Shown here: piece after piece, positions 3,322 through 8,482 of the stretch
How the letters are laid out: each line of letters starts with the position of its first letter
Numbering within the stretch: the stretch's first letter is position 1
DNA from: a virus
Lineage: Duplodnaviria > Heunggongvirae > Uroviricota > Caudoviricetes
Virus record (IMG/VR): IMGVR_UViG_2693429728_000003
Coordinates: 1 to 8,482 of that record
Length of the DNA: 8,482 nucleotides
Strand: one strand, 5' to 3'
Made by a program: the position numbers and the translations under genes
The notes under the pieces: model-generated
Database searches by the model: none
Told to the model about the DNA's origin: nothing
What the model saw: the letters and a program-made list of their open reading frames with translations, nothing else

Positions 3322-3814
3322 ACGCTGCCTTGTCGGGGCCGTGCTGGCTATTGCTGCCACGCTGCCGGGTTTTCAGCAGCTTCACACCTCCGTGGAAGGG
3401 CTGAAACTGATTGCCGATTACGAAGGTTGTCGTCTGCAGCCGTATCAGTGCAGCGCGGGTGTCTGGACCGACGGCATTGGTAATACGTCGGGCGTCATTC
3501 CCGGCAAAACCATTACGGAGCGACAGGCAGCAGAAGGGCTGATCTCCAACGTGCTGCGTGTGGAGCGGGCGCTGGAAAGGTGTGTGAAGCAACAGCCGCC
3601 GCAGAAGGTGTATGACGCGGCGGTGTCGTTTGCCTTCAACGTGGGTACGGGCAATGCCTGCAGTTCCACGCTGGTGAAATTGCTCAATCAGCGGCGCTGG
3701 GCGGATGCGTGCCGACAGTTGCCGCGCTGGGTTTATGTAAAAGGTGTGTTTAATCAGGGGCTGGATAACCGCCGTGCGCGGGAGATGGCCTGGTGTTTAC
3801 AGGGAGCAAACTGA
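3302..3814 (+). CDS. SAR endolysin (T4/P1 lysozyme family, glycoside hydrolase 24-like)
   Basis: 170-aa product. N-terminal weakly hydrophobic Gly/Ala-rich segment (CLVGAVLAIAATLPGF) typical of a signal-anchor-release domain. Catalytic signature E41-x8-C50-x5-T56 (YEGCRLQPYQCSAGVWTDG) plus Cys9 and Cys43, matching the P1 Lyz arrangement. GGAGG at 3294-3298 before ATG 3302. Confidence 0.85.
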   Translation: MNPSIVKRCLVGAVLAIAATLPGFQQLHTSVEGLKLIADYEGCRLQPYQCSAGVWTDGIGNTSGVIPGKTITERQAAEGLISNVLRVERALERCVKQQPPQKVYDAAVSFAFNVGTGNACSSTLVKLLNQRRWADACRQLPRWVYVKGVFNQGLDNRRAREMAWCLQGAN

Positions 3815-3815
3815 A

Positions 3816-4193
3816 ATGAAAAAGAAATTAATCAGCGGACTGTTTCTGATGTTATGGATGGCGCTGTTAATCGCAGCAATTGTGTATCCGCAGGGGATTT
3901 TTCCGGTACTGGAAGCGTCCGGCGTTTGGGTAGCCTGTTTGCTGACATGGGCGGTAATTCCGGTAGCACTGGCTGCGTTAATTAAGAATGGCCCGCTCTG
4001 GCAGGAGTTAAGGGCATCTTTGCTGAAGACAATTACCCGAAAAGAAAACGTATTTACCAGTTGGGTGATGCGATTGCTGATTGTTGTAAGTCTCGCCTGG
4101 ACGGGGTGGGCTATTACCCTGGTCTTTTATCTACTGACCGTTATTGCCTTCTGGATCACCCGTAATCAGATGGCGCAACAGGTAGCCGCATGA
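3816..4193 (+). CDS. lysA: LysA-like polytopic membrane protein (lysis timing/regulation)
   Basis: ATG at 3816 with GGGAG about 9 nt upstream; 125 aa with about 4 predicted TM helices. Located between the endolysin and spanin genes as P2 lysA. The track ORF from 3744 overlaps the endolysin and lacks an RBS. Confidence 0.62.
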   Translation: MKKKLISGLFLMLWMALLIAAIVYPQGIFPVLEASGVWVACLLTWAVIPVALAALIKNGPLWQELRASLLKTITRKENVFTSWVMRLLIVVSLAWTGWAITLVFYLLTVIAFWITRNQMAQQVAA

Positions 4194-4618
4194 ACCGGTT
4201 GCTGCTGGTTGTGCTGGCGTTATTACTGGCGGCGCTGGGCTGGCAGACGTGGCGGATGGCTGATGCCAGCCAGACCATTAGCACGCAGGCAGACGAGCTG
4301 CAGAGCAAAAGCCAGGCACTGGCAAAGAGCAACAGCCAGCTTATCAGCCTGTCCATTCTGACTGAAACCAATAACCGGGAGCAGGCGCGGCTCTATGCCG
4401 AAGCAGAACAGACCAGCGCGCTGCTGAGACAACGACAACACCGGATCGAGGAACTGAAACGTGAGAACGAGGATTTACGCCGCTGGGCTGATACTCCTTT
4501 GCCTGCTGACATTATCCGGCTGCGGGAACGTCCGACGCTCACCGGAGGTGCAGCTTACCGTCAGTGGTTGTCCGCGAGTGACGCCGTGTCGGCTGGATCA
4601 GGCAGCGCCGCGCACTAA
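4190..4618 (+). CDS. lysB: LysB-like inner-membrane spanin (Rz equivalent)
   Basis: ATGA overlap with lysA. 142-aa product with one N-terminal TM helix (LLLVVLALLLAALGW) followed by a long charged, helical periplasmic region (ELQSKSQALAKSNSQL, RIEELKRENEDLRRW), the typical i-spanin architecture. Confidence 0.72.
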   Translation: MNRLLLVVLALLLAALGWQTWRMADASQTISTQADELQSKSQALAKSNSQLISLSILTETNNREQARLYAEAEQTSALLRQRQHRIEELKRENEDLRRWADTPLPADIIRLRERPTLTGGAAYRQWLSASDAVSAGSGSAAH

Positions 4619-4751
4619 CGGTGATCTGAACGCGTTGCTGGATGAAACGGAGGCCGCCTGGGCGGTCTGTGCAGACAAAGTGGACATGATTATTGCGTGT
4701 CAGGAGCGAAACAGTGAACAAACCACAATCCCTGCGCCACGCCCTCAATAA
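4461..4751 (+). CDS. lysC: LysC-like outer-membrane lipoprotein spanin (Rz1 equivalent)
   Basis: +1-frame ORF starting inside lysB. GTG at 4461 preceded by GAGGA (4448-4452) at 8-nt spacing. Signal peptide with lipobox LSGC (Cys21) and a proline-rich C-terminus (TIPAPRPQ). It overlaps the 3' part of lysB and extends past it (overlapped rather than fully embedded). Confidence 0.7.
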   Translation: MRTRIYAAGLILLCLLTLSGCGNVRRSPEVQLTVSGCPRVTPCRLDQAAPRTNGDLNALLDETEAAWAVCADKVDMIIACQERNSEQTTIPAPRPQ

Positions 4752-5145
4752 AGCGGTGCCTTATGTCCGCAATAACCCGGACAAACTGCATCTGTTTGTG
4801 GATAACGGTTCGCTGGTTGCCACGGGGGCCAGCTCCATGTCGTGGGAGTACCGTTACACCCTGAACGCGGTGATTGAGGATTTCAGCGGCGACCAGAATC
4901 TGCTGATGGCCCCGGTTTTGCTGTGGCTGCGGGATAACCAGCCCGATGCCATCAATAACCCGGCGTTACGGGAAAAGTTATTCACCTTTGAGGTGGATAT
5001 TCTGCGCAATGATGTCTGTGATATCAGCCTGAACCTGCAACTGACGGAGCGTGTGCTGGTCAGCACTGACGGCAGTGTGTCGAGCGTTGAAGCGATAACG
5101 GAACCCGATGAACCTGAAGAAATGTGGACGGTGAAACGTGGCTGA
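4714..5145 (+). CDS. R: Tail completion protein gpR
   Basis: Recalled similarity to P2 gpR (LHLFVDNGS, RYTLNAVIEDFSGD, PVLLWLRDNQPD, SLNLQLTERVLVS). Preferred start is GTG 4714, preceded by AGGAG (4702-4706) at 7-nt spacing; the track start at 4693 is a TTG without an RBS. Confidence 0.83.
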   Translation: MNKPQSLRHALNKAVPYVRNNPDKLHLFVDNGSLVATGASSMSWEYRYTLNAVIEDFSGDQNLLMAPVLLWLRDNQPDAINNPALREKLFTFEVDILRNDVCDISLNLQLTERVLVSTDGSVSSVEAITEPDEPEEMWTVKRG

Positions 5146-5581
5146 ATTGCAGAAAGTGGACGACTGGCTGAGTGCCTTACTGGCGAATCTGGAGCCAGCT
5201 GCAAGAAGTCGCATGATGCGCCAACTGGCACAGGAGCTGCGCCGGACACAGCAGCAAAACATCAGGATGCAGCGCAATCCAGATGGCAGCAGCTATGAAC
5301 CTCGACGGGTAACAGCACGCAGTAAAAAGGGGCGCATCAAACGTCAGATGTTTGCAAAGCTGCGCACCACAAAATACCTGAAAACTGCAGCTAGCGCCGA
5401 TTCTGCCAGCGTGCAGTTTGAAGGTAAGGTGCAGCACATTGCCCGTGTTCACCATTACGGCCTGCGTGATCGCGTCAGTCGAAAAGGTATTTATACCATC
5501 TATGCGAAAAGGCAGTTATTAGGTTTTAATGTCCAATCTATTGAGTTAATTGAAAGAATGTTCATTAAAAACCTAACTTGA
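5138..5581 (+). CDS. S: Tail completion protein gpS
   Basis: 147-aa ORF overlapping the R stop by 8 nt, GTG start with GGTG 4 nt upstream. Recalled similarity to P2 gpS (DDWLSALLANLEPAAR, QNIRMQRNPDGSSYEPR, IARVHHYGLRDRVSR). The last ~25 codons lie in AT-rich DNA (see findings). Confidence 0.83.
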   Translation: MAELQKVDDWLSALLANLEPAARSRMMRQLAQELRRTQQQNIRMQRNPDGSSYEPRRVTARSKKGRIKRQMFAKLRTTKYLKTAASADSASVQFEGKVQHIARVHHYGLRDRVSRKGIYTIYAKRQLLGFNVQSIELIERMFIKNLT

Positions 5582-5584
5582 TTT

Positions 5585-6604
5585 TTATTTGTTTTCAATT
5601 GAGTTAGATATAGATAGGAATGTGTCCCCTATTTCTATAGATAGTTGTTTAATTAAATTCATGAAAATTAAATTCTCTTCGTTGCAGTCATTTTTCAGTA
5701 GACAGCACGTTGATTGAGTAAGACTAAGGGCTGTAGCATGTGCAGGGTCAACTAATCCGAAATTACTTGGACCTATGTTGATGACGTTCTTCAGGTGATG
5801 GGGTAGTGACAAGCTATTAGTGATTGTTTTTATATTTACATGGATGTTTTGGCATGCCCATTTAAAATATGGGCGCATGTGATCTAATTTAACTTCTTTT
5901 TCAATTGATTTAAAGCTAGCTTTGTGTTTCTTATCAGTTAAAAATGGTGTGGCCCAACCATATTGCGAATCAAAACTTCTGCCATATGTTTTAATGGCTT
6001 TATCGAACAAGTCTGTTAATTCTCTGGCCTCTTCATTACTGGGCCCTTTCTCTTGAAGCCTGCTTTCATACTTTTTATGAGACATCATTAGATAATAGCT
6101 ATCATAAATTTCATGTGCTAAAAATATTTCTGAGCATTTAGGACCATGCTTGTCGATGAAATGTAGTGTTACATTTGTTTCATGCAGTGCTCTCCATCTT
6201 GCATGGGCTGCGTCAGGAAATCCATTTTTTAATAGACATAAAATCTCGTTAGAAATTGCACATGCCTTTGCGTGTAATCTAATTAGTAATTGCAAATGGT
6301 TGTTTGTGTCGGTGTCTTTATCTTGTTGTAAGCTTGTACTATATTTAGAACCTTGATTAATACATAACTCTAACAACAACTCTAATAATCCAAAACCATC
6401 TCTCCAAATATTAATATGTCTTTTTATGAAATTTTGATGTTCTTGTTCATTTTGGGCCAGTAATTCTGCTTTTTTTTCTTTAAATTCCAATATGTATTCA
6501 TTTGCTTTGAAGTCTATGAACTCCCAGTATAGCTTTTCAAAATTTTCTCTGGTTGCATCGGGAAGACTGTTTTTATTTGAGCTTAACCATTCTTTAAAAT
6601 CCAT
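5585..6604 (-). CDS. Hypothetical protein encoded in the AT-rich S-V island; candidate moron (possible defense or superinfection-exclusion function)
   Basis: Single uninterrupted 339-aa reverse-strand ORF that fills the AT-rich island. Start ATG (reverse complement of 6602-6604) preceded by AGGGGG about 6 nt upstream on the minus strand. No TM segments or Walker motif; predicted largely helical. Contains an R-x4-H motif (RWRALH, aa 136-141). I recognise no family from sequence alone. Confidence 0.78.
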   Translation of the reverse strand: MDFKEWLSSNKNSLPDATRENFEKLYWEFIDFKANEYILEFKEKKAELLAQNEQEHQNFIKRHINIWRDGFGLLELLLELCINQGSKYSTSLQQDKDTDTNNHLQLLIRLHAKACAISNEILCLLKNGFPDAAHARWRALHETNVTLHFIDKHGPKCSEIFLAHEIYDSYYLMMSHKKYESRLQEKGPSNEEARELTDLFDKAIKTYGRSFDSQYGWATPFLTDKKHKASFKSIEKEVKLDHMRPYFKWACQNIHVNIKTITNSLSLPHHLKNVINIGPSNFGLVDPAHATALSLTQSTCCLLKNDCNEENLIFMNLIKQLSIEIGDTFLSISNSIENK

Positions 6605-6618
6605 TGTGTTCCCCTATT

Positions 6619-6636
6619 TGTACCATGTTTTATACA
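6619..6636 (+). promoter_or_regulatory. TGT-N12-ACA dyad, candidate Ogr/Delta-type activator site of the V late promoter
   Basis: Exact TGT(6619-6621)-N12-ACA(6634-6636) in the 78-bp gap upstream of V, where P2 places late promoter PV. P2-family late promoters carry such a dyad centred near -55. Geometry is imperfect: centre 6627.5 would put the TSS at or just inside the annotated V start. Confidence 0.3.
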
Positions 6637-6650
6637 ACGAACTGTAAGCG

Positions 6651-6679
6651 ATTATATGGTTTTTTTCATTCATATTTAA
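6651..6679 (-). promoter_or_regulatory. Candidate sigma70-type promoter for the island ORF
   Basis: On the minus strand, a perfect TATAAT (reverse complement of 6651-6656) with TTAAAT 17 nt upstream (reverse complement of 6674-6679). Predicted TSS near 6644, giving a ~40-nt leader to the ATG at 6604. Confidence 0.35.
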
Positions 6680-6682
6680 TAT

Positions 6683-7261
6683 ATGGACAAAAATCTAACA
6701 GAAATCATGCGCCTTATCACCAACCTGATCCGCACTGGTGTAGTCACCGAAGTGGACCGGGAGAACTGGCTTTGCCGGGTGAAAACGGGCGAGCTTGAAA
6801 CTAACTGGATCAGTTGGCTGACGCTGCGTGCCGGGAATGCCAGGACATGGTGGCGACCATCGGAAGGTGAACAGGTGGTGCTGCTGAGTCTGGGCGGCAA
6901 TCTGGAAACCGCCTTTGCGTTACCCGCCATCTATTCGAATCAGTTCGCGCCACCGTCGACGTCGGCGGACGCCTGCGTGACAGAACATCCTGACGGTGGC
7001 TGGTTTGAATACGAACCCGCCACCGGGCGCTGGTATGTCAGGGGCATCAAATCAATGGTCATTGAGGCCGCTGACAACATCACCATGAAAACCAGTGAGT
7101 TTGTACTGGAGGCTGACCGCACGCGCATTAACAGTGAAGTGGTGATCAATGGTGGCGTTACCCAGGGCGGCGGAGCGATGAGTTCTAACGGGATCGTGGT
7201 TGATGCGCATCAGCATACTGGCGTCCTGAAAGGCGGCGATACAACCGGAGGCCCGGTATGA
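6683..7261 (+). CDS. V: Baseplate spike/assembly protein gpV
   Basis: 192-aa ORF with recalled similarity to P2 gpV (NLIRTGVVTEVD, RAGNARTWWRPSEGEQV, ETAFALPAIYS, glycine-rich C-terminus HQHTGV). No clear SD before ATG 6683; in-frame ATG at 6707 is an alternative start. Confidence 0.85.
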   Translation: MDKNLTEIMRLITNLIRTGVVTEVDRENWLCRVKTGELETNWISWLTLRAGNARTWWRPSEGEQVVLLSLGGNLETAFALPAIYSNQFAPPSTSADACVTEHPDGGWFEYEPATGRWYVRGIKSMVIEAADNITMKTSEFVLEADRTRINSEVVINGGVTQGGGAMSSNGIVVDAHQHTGVLKGGDTTGGPV

Positions 7262-7617
7262 CGCTTTATATCGGGATGAACAATACCAGCGGCAAAGTCA
7301 TTACTGATATTGACCATCTGCGCCAGTCGGTGCGGGACATTCTGCTGACACCGCAGGGTAGCCGTATTGCCCGTCGTGAATATGGTTCCCTGCTGTCGGC
7401 ACTGATAGACCAGCCACAAAATCCGGCATTACGTCTGCAGGTCATGTCGGCAGTGTATGTGGCGCTTAGTCGTTGGGAGCCACGGCTGACGCTGGATTCC
7501 ATCACCATCAACAGCAATTTTGACGGTTCAATGATGGTGGAGCTGACCGGGCGGCGTAATAACGGTGTGCCTGTTTCCCTTTCCGTATCAACAGGAGCAG
7601 AGAATGGCAGTGATTGA
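7258..7617 (+). CDS. W: Baseplate protein gpW (GPW/gp25 family)
   Basis: 119-aa ORF coupled to V by an ATGA overlap. Recalled similarity to P2 gpW (SVRDILLTPQGSRIARREYGS, LSRWEPRL). Confidence 0.87.
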   Translation: MTLYIGMNNTSGKVITDIDHLRQSVRDILLTPQGSRIARREYGSLLSALIDQPQNPALRLQVMSAVYVALSRWEPRLTLDSITINSNFDGSMMVELTGRRNNGVPVSLSVSTGAENGSD

Positions 7618-8482
7618 TCTTTCGCAGTTGCCTGCACCGCAGATTGTGGATGTGCCGGACTTTGAGACGCTGCTTGCCGAACGCAAGGCAGAATTTGTGG
7701 CACTTCATCCGAAAGATGAGCAGGAAGCAGTGATGCGTACGCTGGAACTTGAATCTGAACCCGTCACCAAATTGTTGCAGGAGAACGCTTACCGTGAGTT
7801 GCTTCTGCGCCAGCGCATTAACGAAGCCGCGCAGGCTGTGATGGTGGCTTACGCGATGGGCGGCGATCTTGACCAGCTCGCTGCCAACTACAACGTGAAA
7901 CGCCTGACGGTGACGCCTGCTGATAATGACGCTGTGCCACCCGTTGCGGCTGTGATGGAAAGCGATGAAGCGTTACGCCTGCGTGTGCCTGCAGCCTTTG
8001 AAGGGCTTTCAGTTGCGGGGCCAACTGCAGCTTATGAATTTCATGCCCGAAGCGCCGACGGTCGGGTGGCGGATGCCAGTGCAACCAGCCCGGCACCTGC
8101 AGAGGTGGTGCTGACTGTCCTTAGCCGCGAAGGCAATGGAACTGCAGAAAAAGACCTGCTGGACGTGGTGGAAAAAGCTCTGAACAGTGAGAACGTCCGC
8201 CCAGTGGCTGACCGTCTTACGGTTCGCAGTGCAGAAATCATCCCGTATCGCGTGGAAGCCACCATTTTTCTATATCCGGGACCGGAAGCAGAGCCGGTAA
8301 TGGCAGCGGCAAAAGCCAGCCTGCAGAAGTACATCGCCAGTCAGACGCGTCTTGGTCGGGATATTCGCCGTAGCGCCATCTTTGCCGCCCTGCATGTTGA
8401 GGGGGTGCAGCGTGTGGAGCTGGCTTCTCCTCTGGCGGATGTGGTCCTGAACAAAACACAGGCGGCATCATGTACGCAGTGG
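7604..8482 (+). CDS. J: Baseplate assembly protein gpJ, N-terminal part (3' end lies outside the window)
   Basis: Frame opens at ATG 7604 (AGGAG at 7593-7597) and stays open to the window end; translation MAVIDLSQLPAPQIVDVPDFE ... GRDIRRSAIFAALHVEGVQRVELASPLADVVLN strongly resembles P2 gpJ. It is absent from the ORF track, presumably because no stop falls in the window. Confidence 0.87.
   Translation, partial: MAVIDLSQLPAPQIVDVPDFETLLAERKAEFVALHPKDEQEAVMRTLELESEPVTKLLQENAYRELLLRQRINEAAQAVMVAYAMGGDLDQLAANYNVKRLTVTPADNDAVPPVAAVMESDEALRLRVPAAFEGLSVAGPTAAYEFHARSADGRVADASATSPAPAEVVLTVLSREGNGTAEKDLLDVVEKALNSENVRPVADRLTVRSAEIIPYRVEATIFLYPGPEAEPVMAAAKASLQKYIASQTRLGRDIRRSAIFAALHVEGVQRVELASPLADVVLNKTQAASCTQW

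Follow-up and report, generated by a model that had tools for sequence, protein, structure and literature searches.

A horizontally exchanged DUF5677 cassette between genes S and V of a P2-like prophage, with a candidate single-gene anti-phage defense as cargo

Between genes S and V, in the known orf30 locus, a P2-like (Peduoviridae) prophage carries an AT-rich segment of ~1.2 kb, which is a horizontally exchanged cassette. The cassette is a known kind of element and not a new one. Its single gene encodes a protein of the DUF5677 family without a detected sequence or structural relative of known function, and the chances are about even that this cargo is a single-gene anti-phage defense expressed in the lysogen. 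The window, i.e., the whole stretch of DNA that was analyzed (8,482 nucleotides), encodes the phage genes O, N, M, L, X, Y, K, lysA, lysB/C, R and S to the left of the segment and V, W and J to its right, all on the plus strand. The features of the segment and its borders are as follows.

5138..5581, plus strand: gene S (tail completion/virion morphogenesis, Phage_tail_S), with which the PO late operon ends
~5468..6735: recently shared cassette block, almost mismatch-free among five carriers, with a jump in mismatch density on either side
5488..6702: AT-rich island, defined by the composition profile and by lack of nucleotide homology to Cartapus and to 500465-1, a phage whose site is empty
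5585..6604, minus strand: cargo gene, DUF5677 (PF18928), encoding a soluble, all-alpha protein of 339 aa and 39.4 kDa (ORF, Pfam, PHROG, RefSeq)
6610..6615, minus strand: Shine-Dalgarno-like AGGGGA, 5 nt upstream of the cargo ATG, read from the sequence
6619..6636: Ogr/Delta activator box (TGT-N12-ACA dyad) of the PV late promoter, recognized by its consensus, fixed spacing and conservation
6656-6651, minus strand: candidate -10 hexamer TATAAT, found by eye and in our own scan (perfect -10, poor -35 with 3/6 matches) and not called by the promoter tool
6683..7261, plus strand: gene V (baseplate spike), first gene of the PV late operon

In sliding 200-nt windows over the 8.5 kb, the GC content was 0.265–0.39 in those covering positions 5401–6700 and 0.485–0.66 in all others. 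The switch spans one or two such windows on each side, proceeding from 0.515 through 0.38 to 0.265 on the left and from 0.31 through 0.42 to 0.58 on the right. Across ~5488–6702 the values drop to 0.27–0.39 from 0.52–0.62, and GC3 separates the cargo ORF (0.29) from N, M, K, R, the rest of S, V and W (0.56–0.69). The segment is filled by one 339-aa ORF on the minus strand (5585–6604 in the ORF list), whose placement between S and V was established from the ORFs, from tblastn of the window's proteins and from the RefSeq annotation of near-identical prophages. The sequence-only reading had described an abrupt GC switch and a single gene on the reversed strand; both were borne out, the former by the calculations of GC and GC3, which show that composition across the segment is not uniform. 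The island itself also stood, but the limits proposed for it (5505–6682) were too narrow, as the AT-rich block really extends over ~5488–6702.

The borders of the island fall within coding sequence on both sides. In DNA alignments to the relatives 500465-1 and Cartapus, homology is lost after '...GTCAGTCGAAAAGG', at about position 5487, and returns at '...GAAATCATGCGCC', at about 6703; the junction of 500465-1 is empty, and that of Cartapus holds another gene. The AT-rich block takes in the end of S (its last ~31 codons) and the start of V (its first ~7). Gene S was assigned from the ORF list, the RefSeq annotation of a near-identical prophage and a Pfam Phage_tail_S match on the neighbor of the Salmonella homolog; its codons 1–116 belong to the phage backbone, while its tail (5488–5578) belongs to the island, with a GC content of 0.28–0.29 and a GC3 of 0.32, versus 0.55 and 0.56, respectively, in the rest of the gene. 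In each occupied junction the S tail is AT-rich, recoded, homologous at the protein level and different, while in the empty junction its GC content is 0.57. Gene V, assigned from the ORF, the alignment, the annotation of relatives and a Pfam Phage_base_V match on the neighbor of the Salmonella homolog, begins with the island's own AT-rich version of its first codons (MDKNLTE versus MNAQLTE). Because homology breaks inside S and resumes inside V, the cassette carries its own version of the S tail and of the PV promoter.

Neither a tRNA, an Rfam family, an integrase nor a transposase was found at the island, and the cargo ORF has no recombinase match. Flanking inverted repeats were also lacking, and the direct-repeat matches were short, AT-rich and chance-like. 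The earlier statement that integrase, transposase and long flanking repeats are absent thus survived the repeat, tRNA and Rfam scans. Insertion of a transposon or integrative element was rejected, there being no recombinase, terminal repeats, target-site duplication or tRNA target. The proposal that the segment was gained through recombination between related phages agrees with this lack of mobility genes and repeats and with the homology breaks within S and V. The cassette passes between P2-like phages via homologous recombination, with the left crossover in a conserved stretch of S coding for ...HHYGLRDRV and the right one in the first ~15 codons of V. It thereby imports an AT-rich version of the last ~30 codons of S together with a PV promoter in which only TGT-N12-ACA is kept in register. 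Such crossovers, with the cassette's own S tail and PV variant, explain how one cargo can take the place of another while late-gene expression stays undisturbed.

Comparison of the S-V junction across P2-like prophages revealed the pattern of conserved flanks and variable cargo that had been anticipated. Of 5426 complete E. coli genomes, 1062 contained the flanks and just 4 the island, while 538 of the flank-bearing genomes, i.e., about half of the backbone carriers, exhibited a contiguous empty junction. More than 99% of E. coli prophages that share the backbone thus lack the cargo, as do all 52 related phage genome records. Among five carriers compared segment by segment, the island was 99.2–99.9% identical and the flanks 95–98% identical, and none of the carriers displayed a frameshift or truncation in the cargo ORF. 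Natural lysogens include UPEC-245U/190328, MINF_1D, EcPNK004 and GPEC709. A rare island amid common flanks and empty junctions, more alike among its carriers than the flanks are, supports the earlier designation of the segment as a horizontally acquired moron.

In close relatives the S-V slot is occupied by PARIS AriA/AriB, Septu PtuA/PtuB, a GmrSD/NsnA-like enzyme or a TIR protein, in keeping with the expectation that sites of this type carry defense genes. Like the DUF5677 gene, this defense cargo sits mostly on the strand opposite to the phage genes. In other E. coli genomes the junction is filled by DUF6216 and further genes. Since related prophages hold anti-phage defense systems at this very site, the DUF5677 gene represents a testable single-protein defense candidate.

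The segment had been placed in the tail operon between S and V, of which the position is correct, but not the location inside one operon: the junction is the boundary between the PO and PV operons. The right-hand 78 bp (6605–6682) constitute the PV late promoter region, in which the Ogr box begins at -64 relative to the V start codon and lies only 15 nt from the start codon of the cargo. Of 17 related S-V junctions, 13 have the box at -64 regardless of cargo and a fourteenth has it at -65; in the alignment it is kept while the surrounding bases vary (the Ogr consensus and the structure of the P2 late operons were taken from PMC3931495).

A promoter belonging to the cargo itself, which had been claimed, was not confirmed. 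In the 78-bp gap the consensus scan called no sigma-70 site on the cargo strand; the perfect -10 hexamer seen by eye is paired with a poor -35, and no -10 element recurs at a conserved position across the other occupied junctions. A cargo promoter is nevertheless plausible. At the other end, the cargo stop codon lies 3 nt from that of S, so the two genes converge. The terminator tool found no intrinsic terminator, and in our own folding the convergent junction forms only a weak, AT-rich hairpin with a long loop.

The cargo protein matches Pfam DUF5677 over residues 106–266 with 100.1 bits (gathering score 27.1; E 1.8e-28) and the PHROG family phrog_27456, of unknown function, with E 5.8e-75; RefSeq names it 'DUF5677 domain-containing protein' at the same coordinates in a near-identical prophage. 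The ORF is intact and full length, its polar residues are strongly conserved, and no transmembrane segment or signal peptide was detected. The AlphaFold2 model (pLDDT 88) consists of helices only. Conserved blocks occur at residues ~96–180 and ~231–300, and the N-terminal ~50–95 residues are poorly conserved. In an alignment of 87 sequences R138, E142 and H255 are invariant, and E120, R136, H141, E235 and R244 are nearly so. Searches for relatives of known function were negative: PADLOC-DB v2 yielded 0 families at E <= 1 and NCBIfam no match; 40 family members searched against Pfam at E <= 10 all matched DUF5677 and nothing else, HEPN families included; profiles built from 40 and from 87 sequences matched no PDB sequence at E <= 10; and Foldseek searches of PDB and BFVD gave no match below E 0.1, the only hits being spurious ones to GPCR and BAR proteins. 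The literature searched describes no function for DUF5677/PF18928.

The family is large, comprising 3794 clusters at 50% identity in a search of 1.84 billion proteins, and is conserved over its whole length. Its members are patchily spread over bacteria and archaea at 30–50% identity, including free-living and environmental genomes. At least 10 divergent P2-like elements, originating from Escherichia, Salmonella, Pantoea, Winslowiella and metagenomes, carry a homolog between S and V, and one homolog was found in the classical old/tin hotspot, between the portal and GPA genes. Two lambdoid prophages carry homologs between the replication genes and Q (the nin region), and another homolog is positioned at the cargo end of an island with an integrase and a D5 primase. 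In Dehalococcoidia, Fibrella and Syntrophomonadaceae, homologs are embedded in type I restriction-modification (R-M) operons. In an uncontrolled listing, the other immediate neighbors include Mrr_cat, SLATT_4, HEPN_LA2681, CAP12 TIR, AAA_15 and transposases, and many neighbors are housekeeping genes. The homologs are always low in GC relative to their own flanks. Among cultured phages (50,697 records) the sole homolog occurs in Bacillus phage SPR, at 27% identity and amid hypothetical genes.

Neighbor clustering over 110 loci revealed no conserved partner gene outside phage backbones, and the gene is therefore considered a single-gene module. A toxin-antitoxin pair was rejected, since no adjacent partner is shared and the window leaves no space for a second gene. 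The long members of the family (840, 671 and 508 aa, and a class of ~420 aa with an N-terminal extension) contain no second Pfam domain.

Recurrence in hotspots and islands beside known systems, the genomic signature of defense genes, is thus displayed by the family, as far as gene context can indicate. Were the cargo a defense gene, its protein would be produced in the lysogen and would act alone, by exclusion or abortive infection, protecting the host of the prophage against other phages. The two conserved blocks, with the invariant R138, E142 and H255, would form the site of an enzymatic effector, and the variable N-terminal ~50–95 residues would tune its specificity. A broader proposal is more tentative and falls somewhat short of an even chance, namely that DUF5677 represents an unrecognized, widespread family of single-protein defenses in bacteria and archaea, with an all-alpha fold that has no solved relative and a catalytic mechanism yet to be described, spreading as a cassette via several hotspots of phages and satellites and via type I R-M operons. 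On this view DUF5677 may serve as a back-up to restriction. If defense is correct, the large DUF5677 family of bacteria and archaea would be a new immune effector; should defense prove negative, the gene would be an ordinary moron at a known variable locus.

The alternative that survives best, although we consider it unlikely, is that the cargo is a lysogenic-conversion or selfish gene (for host fitness, virulence, regulation or addiction) that exploits a permissive gap between operons. P2 hotspots also hold a cytolethal distending toxin and tail-fiber modules (10.1101/2024.10.15.618418), a classifier of Salmonella severity includes DUF5677 as a correlative Pfam marker (PMC12440251), and three of the four carriers among complete E. 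coli genomes are human clinical isolates. Moreover, in the only published test of a DUF5677 member, a distant Bacillota homolog, the ORF was expressed in E. faecalis and was not one of the five that gave protection against six phages (PMC12632615). A secreted virulence factor is improbable, however, because the cytoplasmic protein has no signal peptide or transmembrane segment, and the presence of the family in free-living, environmental and archaeal genomes indicates that it is not specific to host association. An addiction-type gene would lack its antitoxin partner, and recurrence in both R-M operons and phage defense hotspots points instead to conflict among mobile elements.

Somewhat less probable still is a specific form of defense, in which the cargo would be a divergent HEPN-like RNase that aborts infection through RNA cleavage, in the manner of R-M-linked HEPN proteins and the anticodon nuclease PrrC. 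The motif R136-WRAL-H141 (R-x4-H), invariant in 40 sequences, occurs in an all-alpha protein near the start of a long helix of the AlphaFold2 model, and the type I R-M operons in which homologs reside are reportedly a typical context of HEPN and anticodon-nuclease genes. The spacing of R-x4-H is nevertheless easily due to chance, and R136 and H141, conserved to at least 90% in the 87 sequences, fall short of the invariance of R138, E142 and H255. None of the 40 members matched a HEPN Pfam family even at the permissive threshold, and no likeness to a HEPN domain was found at the profile or structural level.

Counter-defense, i.e., an anti-restriction or anti-immune gene that aids the phage's own infection or induction, is improbable. 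Such genes share phage accessory loci with defense genes, and an interaction with R-M enzymes might in principle underlie the association with type I R-M operons. Chromosomal R-M operons in several phyla would hardly retain their own inhibitor, though, and the cargo is remote from the early region and transcribed against the late operons, so that its expression is uncoupled from phage entry. In addition, its 339 aa with many catalytic-type residues would be unlike the small mimics that act against restriction. Least credible by far is a conserved structural or morphogenetic gene, or a decaying remnant: the ORF lies among tail and baseplate genes, as its homologs do in several divergent P2-like phages, but viable relatives such as 500465-1 and Cartapus and nearly all same-backbone prophages dispense with it (on which ground a conserved structural gene was rejected), its strand and composition are opposite to those of the structural genes, homologs occur in non-phage settings, and a full-length ORF conserved along its entire length in the 3794 clusters is no remnant.

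Single-gene abortive-infection and exclusion proteins include Old, Tin and Fun of P2, lactococcal AbiV and PrrC. The candidate defense described here resembles them in consisting of one gene, without a conserved partner, borne by prophages or type I R-M operons, low in GC and patchily distributed. In profile and structure searches no sequence or structural likeness of the cargo to any of these five was detected. The existing family entries, PF18928 and PHROG 27456, carry no function, and the Pfam model spans residues 106–266 only, to which the family as delineated here adds the block at 231–300 and the variable N-terminus.

In terms of the locus, orf30 between S and V is one of three sites of foreign genes in P2-like phages, the others being the TO region (tin/old) and the Z region (Z/fun) (PMC3091744, PMC6823313); the earlier placement of orf30 agrees with these sources. 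The cassette shares with P2 orf30 its S-V position, an AT-rich foreign insert, absence or difference in relatives and the lack of mobility genes. In contrast to the 261-bp ORF of P2 (PMC6823313), its cargo is an unrelated DUF5677 gene of 1020 bp on the opposite strand, and exchange of the cassette also replaces the tail of S and, within the PV promoter, the non-essential bases. Conserved flanks and variable cargo are likewise features of the old/tin and Z/fun hotspots of P2 (PMC9122126, PMC9519451), the former of which itself holds one DUF5677 homolog; their cargo includes validated defense systems, whereas the DUF5677 cargo is a candidate only. A further hotspot has been described 'within the tail genes / downstream of GpL' (PMC13586616), and the main hotspot is reported never to be empty in P2 (PMC13586616), unlike the S-V junction, which is empty in about half of the cases. 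Rousset et al. 2022 (PMC9122126) and Vassallo et al. 2022 (PMC9519451) name only other P2 hotspots and nowhere use the terms gpS, gpV, orf30 or baseplate. The S-V (orf30) junction thus goes unnamed in the 2022 hotspot papers, and it nonetheless behaves as a third defense-cargo slot of P2-like prophages, filled in about half of the E. coli prophages that share this backbone, with PARIS, Septu and other systems among its cargo.

The window covers the late-gene region of a prophage of P2-like type (Peduoviridae), as judged from near-identical annotated prophages and related phages, with the gene order O N M L X Y K lysA lysB/lysC R S, cargo, V W J. Between S and V lies one gene:

5585-6604, minus strand: cargo ORF of 339 aa, the single long ORF of the segment

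The neighboring long ORFs are all on the plus strand (ORF list). In a 200-nt sliding window, GC content was 0.265-0.39 across ~5401-6700, versus 0.485-0.66 in the rest of the 8,482 bp, with sharp transitions at either edge of the island. GC3 was 0.29 in the cargo ORF and 0.32 in the last 31 codons of S, compared with 0.56-0.69 for N, M, K, R, the remainder of S, V and W. The abrupt compositional switch and the reversal of coding strand, both noted in the sequence-only reading, are thus borne out, and the AT-rich, reversed-strand segment is real, far beyond chance. A second, milder GC dip at 3700-4200 (0.485-0.505 versus ~0.58) spans the end of the lysozyme gene and lysA (3816-4193). Since tblastn detected no lysA homologue in phage Cartapus (L002) or in comparison loci L005, L006 and L014, lysA also looks like a variable module.

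Both edges of the island were aligned with the empty-site phage 500465-1, in which 68 bp separate S from V, and with Cartapus, which carries another cargo (176 aa). On the left, nucleotide homology ends at ~5487, inside S and ~31 codons ahead of its stop; on the right, it returns at ~6703, ~7 codons into V. The island-encoded tail of S remains protein-homologous to its relatives (...YAKRQLLGFN... versus ...YAERRLLGVN...), but is recoded at a GC of 0.28. The final 90 nt of S had a GC of 0.27-0.48 in all 15 occupied S-V junctions examined, with a sequence that varied from cargo to cargo, as against 0.57 in the empty junction (L003). Each cargo appears to bring along an S tail of its own, which could also hold 3' end signals for the convergent cargo transcript. 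A Y-x-x-R-x-L-L-G peptide pattern is kept in the AT-rich S tails (window 5488-5581; L002, L005-L007, L012-L014, L029, L034-L039). The borders of the island showed no tRNA, Rfam family or inverted repeat and no meaningful direct repeat, and the cargo ORF is not a recombinase by Pfam, in line with the earlier description of a segment lacking integrase, transposase and long repeats.

Late transcription in P2 starts from four Ogr-dependent promoters (consensus TGT-N12-ACA), of which PO serves ONMLKRS and PV serves VWJIHG (PMC3931495). Two elements of the junction are relevant here:

6619-6636: TGT-N12-ACA dyad, the Ogr/Delta box of late promoter PV; begins 64 nt ahead of the V start codon
6656-6651, minus strand: candidate -10 element, a perfect TATAAT recognized by eye, with a -35 matching at 3/6 positions

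Of 17 related S-V junctions, 13 have the dyad at precisely -64, irrespective of what they carry, and a further one (L039) has it at -65; the junctions sharing it are those of the window, L001-L007, L014, L034 and L036-L039, and the surrounding bases are not conserved. This placement puts the cargo in the gap that follows the PO operon and precedes PV, outside any operon, and not within the tail operon as had been proposed. The Ogr box of P2 is centered at -55 from the transcription start; the dyad center lies ~55 nt from the V ATG, so that with the same spacing V would have almost no leader. Only 15 nt separate the cargo start codon (6604) from the dyad, so that any promoter of the cargo has to overlap the PV region. 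A consensus scan called no sigma-70 site on the cargo strand in the S-V gap upstream of the cargo, and the other occupied junctions contained no positionally conserved -10-like element. At the opposite end, 3 nt separate the stop codon of S from that of the cargo, and the search for an intrinsic terminator at this convergent junction was negative.

The flanks (window 4200-7900) matched 1062 of 5426 complete E. coli genomes and the island matched four of the 5426, at 99.3-99.7% identity; a contiguous empty junction was present in 538 E. coli genomes. In a comparison of the window with the four carriers, identity was 99.2-99.9% over the island (5488-6702), versus 95-98% for the left and right flanks, one near-clonal pair excepted. 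Mismatches were dense up to ~5467, almost lacking over 5468-6735, and then dense again. These alignments bear the mark of a cassette that has passed by homologous recombination from one diverged P2-like backbone to another, in keeping with the gain by recombination between related phages suggested earlier. The crossovers fall in the conserved ...HHYGLRDRV part of S (left) and the start of V (right).

The S-V junction had been equated with the orf30 site, and the literature agrees, listing orf30 as one of three loci for horizontally acquired genes in P2-like phages (PMC3091744; PMC6823313). The AT-rich single-gene cassette fills this known slot. When 60 records were sampled at even steps along the ranked E. 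coli matches, ~22 of ~56 junctions with both flanks joined were occupied. In four of these occupied junctions, viewed individually, the cargo lay exactly between S and V in all four and on the minus strand in three.

Cargo found in the S-V slot
AAA ATPase with DUF4435 protein: PARIS AriA/AriB (PADLOC)
AAA ATPase with HNH protein: Septu PtuA/PtuB (PADLOC)
GmrSD-domain enzyme: NsnA-like, PD-T4-2_A-like
TIR-domain protein: adjoins IS1

Conserved flanks with variable cargo, anticipated by the sequence-only reading, were therefore seen across empty, PARIS, Septu, GmrSD and TIR junctions. Further sampled cargo was named DUF6216 (including E. coli B derivatives), DUF2971, FRG, Sll1717-family ATPase, hypothetical protein or IS element. 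IS1 or IS3 family elements occupy the junction in several E. coli prophages (matches H36, H37, H73 and H83), and in L036 an IS element (2086-2783) sits there beside the TIR-domain gene; the gap thus tolerates transposition as well as cassette exchange. According to a 2026 survey (PMC13586616), a defense hotspot lies "within the tail genes / downstream of GpL". The gpA-portal locus and Z/fun are the only ones given in two hotspot papers of 2022 (PMC9122126; PMC9519451), and a 2024 preprint adds a tail-to-CI locus, with the S-V junction not named (10.1101/2024.10.15.618418). In the E. coli UPEC-245U prophage, a sibling of the window, an AAA ATPase and HNH endonuclease pair matching the PADLOC candidate system PDC-M01 A/B (Septu-like) occupies the gpA-portal interval of the old/tin hotspot (L001 8711-11225), such that this phage bears cargo in at least two hotspots.

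The cargo protein (39.4 kDa, pI 6.5, no hydrophobic segment) matched Pfam DUF5677 (PF18928; 100 bits, residues 106-266) and PHROG 27456, an entry without assigned function, and had no match in PADLOC or NCBIfam. A search of 5.8 billion proteins yielded 277 relatives, the nearest beyond its own cluster (54% identity) being from Salmonella, Enterobacter and others, and a profile search of 1.84 billion representatives yielded 3794 clusters at E <= 1e-3. Conservation is concentrated in two blocks (~96-180 and 231-300), residues 1-50 being the most variable. Invariant positions in a 40-sequence alignment include R109, H111, C115, E120, D131, R136, W137, R138, H141 and E142, together with Y215-G-W217, E235, H242, R244, K248, H255 and K259; W67, L124, G128, R138, E142, W217 and H255 are still invariant among 87 broader sequences. 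The AlphaFold2 model is confident (pLDDT 88, pTM 0.80) and wholly helical. Foldseek against PDB and BFVD gave nothing at E < 0.1, sequence profiles found no match in PDB, and longer family members showed no second recognizable domain.

Homologues with 42-54% identity occupy the S-V slot in eight viral contigs of divergent P2-like elements, whose flank proteins are 45-88% identical to those of the window; the cargo lies on the late-gene strand in two, and one contig carries a second AT-rich gene. In the P2-like contig L013, a second AT-rich ORF (3880-4419, 179 aa, no PADLOC match) is located between the DUF5677 gene and S, and the slot can therefore hold stacked cargo. More S-V cases occur in Pantoea and Winslowiella genomes and in 13 Salmonella contigs. 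One homologue resides in the classical old/tin hotspot, where it shares the interval from portal to GPA with other AT-rich genes (L015), and a common enterobacterial variant appears in lambdoid prophages between replication genes and antiterminator Q (L009, L017). An integrase and D5-primase island in Enterobacter has a homologue at its cargo end, followed by a SEC-C-motif protein. In the E. hormaechei islands (L124-L127, 7200-9533) this same-strand downstream protein has 777 aa, with a C-terminal SEC-C motif as its sole Pfam match, and the pair may be a two-gene arrangement specific to the subfamily. The gene is found inside type I R-M operons (HsdM, HsdS, HsdR) in Dehalococcoidia, Fibrella and one Syntrophomonadaceae genome. 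The Fibrella aquatilis operon also has a Schlafen/AlbA_2 and HATPase_c_4 gene between HsdS and HsdM (L111 8304-9809), and thus two accessory genes.

Among 131 immediate neighbors from 78 diverse genomes were type I S and M subunits, Mrr_cat, SLATT_4, HEPN_LA2681, CAP12-type TIR, AAA_15 and several transposases, along with many housekeeping genes; no conserved partner gene was found across 110 loci. The DUF5677 gene is low in GC relative to its flanks almost everywhere, and family members with 30-48% identity turn up here and there in many bacterial phyla and in archaea. The sole cultured-phage homologue among 50,697 records (27% identity, 83% coverage) is from Bacillus phage SPR, an SPbeta-like phage, where it lies among hypothetical genes upstream of a site-specific recombinase (OM236515.1, L118 4800-5921).

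The cassette gene is an intact member of a large, horizontally mobile, uncharacterized family that is repeatedly found in defense hotspots and R-M operons. It would be expressed from the prophage, and its product may act on its own as an effector that shields the lysogen from other phages. We consider a defense function the leading reading, at about even odds; the main argument against it is that there is no positive experiment, and a distant Bacillota member tested against six enterococcal phages was negative (PMC12632615). Non-defense lysogenic conversion or selfish cargo is unlikely but credible. An HEPN-like RNase mechanism, suggested by the R-x4-H motif (R136...H141), is doubtful; HEPN profile and structure searches returned no match. 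A counter-defense gene is highly improbable, and a structural role or decaying remnant is effectively excluded.

Compared with known systems, the element type and locus are familiar, and the exchange of the cassette by homologous recombination is as the field would expect; the island itself will not surprise a specialist. New are the specific DUF5677 cargo in the S-V slot, the demonstration that the cargo takes the S tail and PV promoter along with it, and the breadth of evidence that makes DUF5677 a defense candidate, one that is cheap and worthwhile to test.
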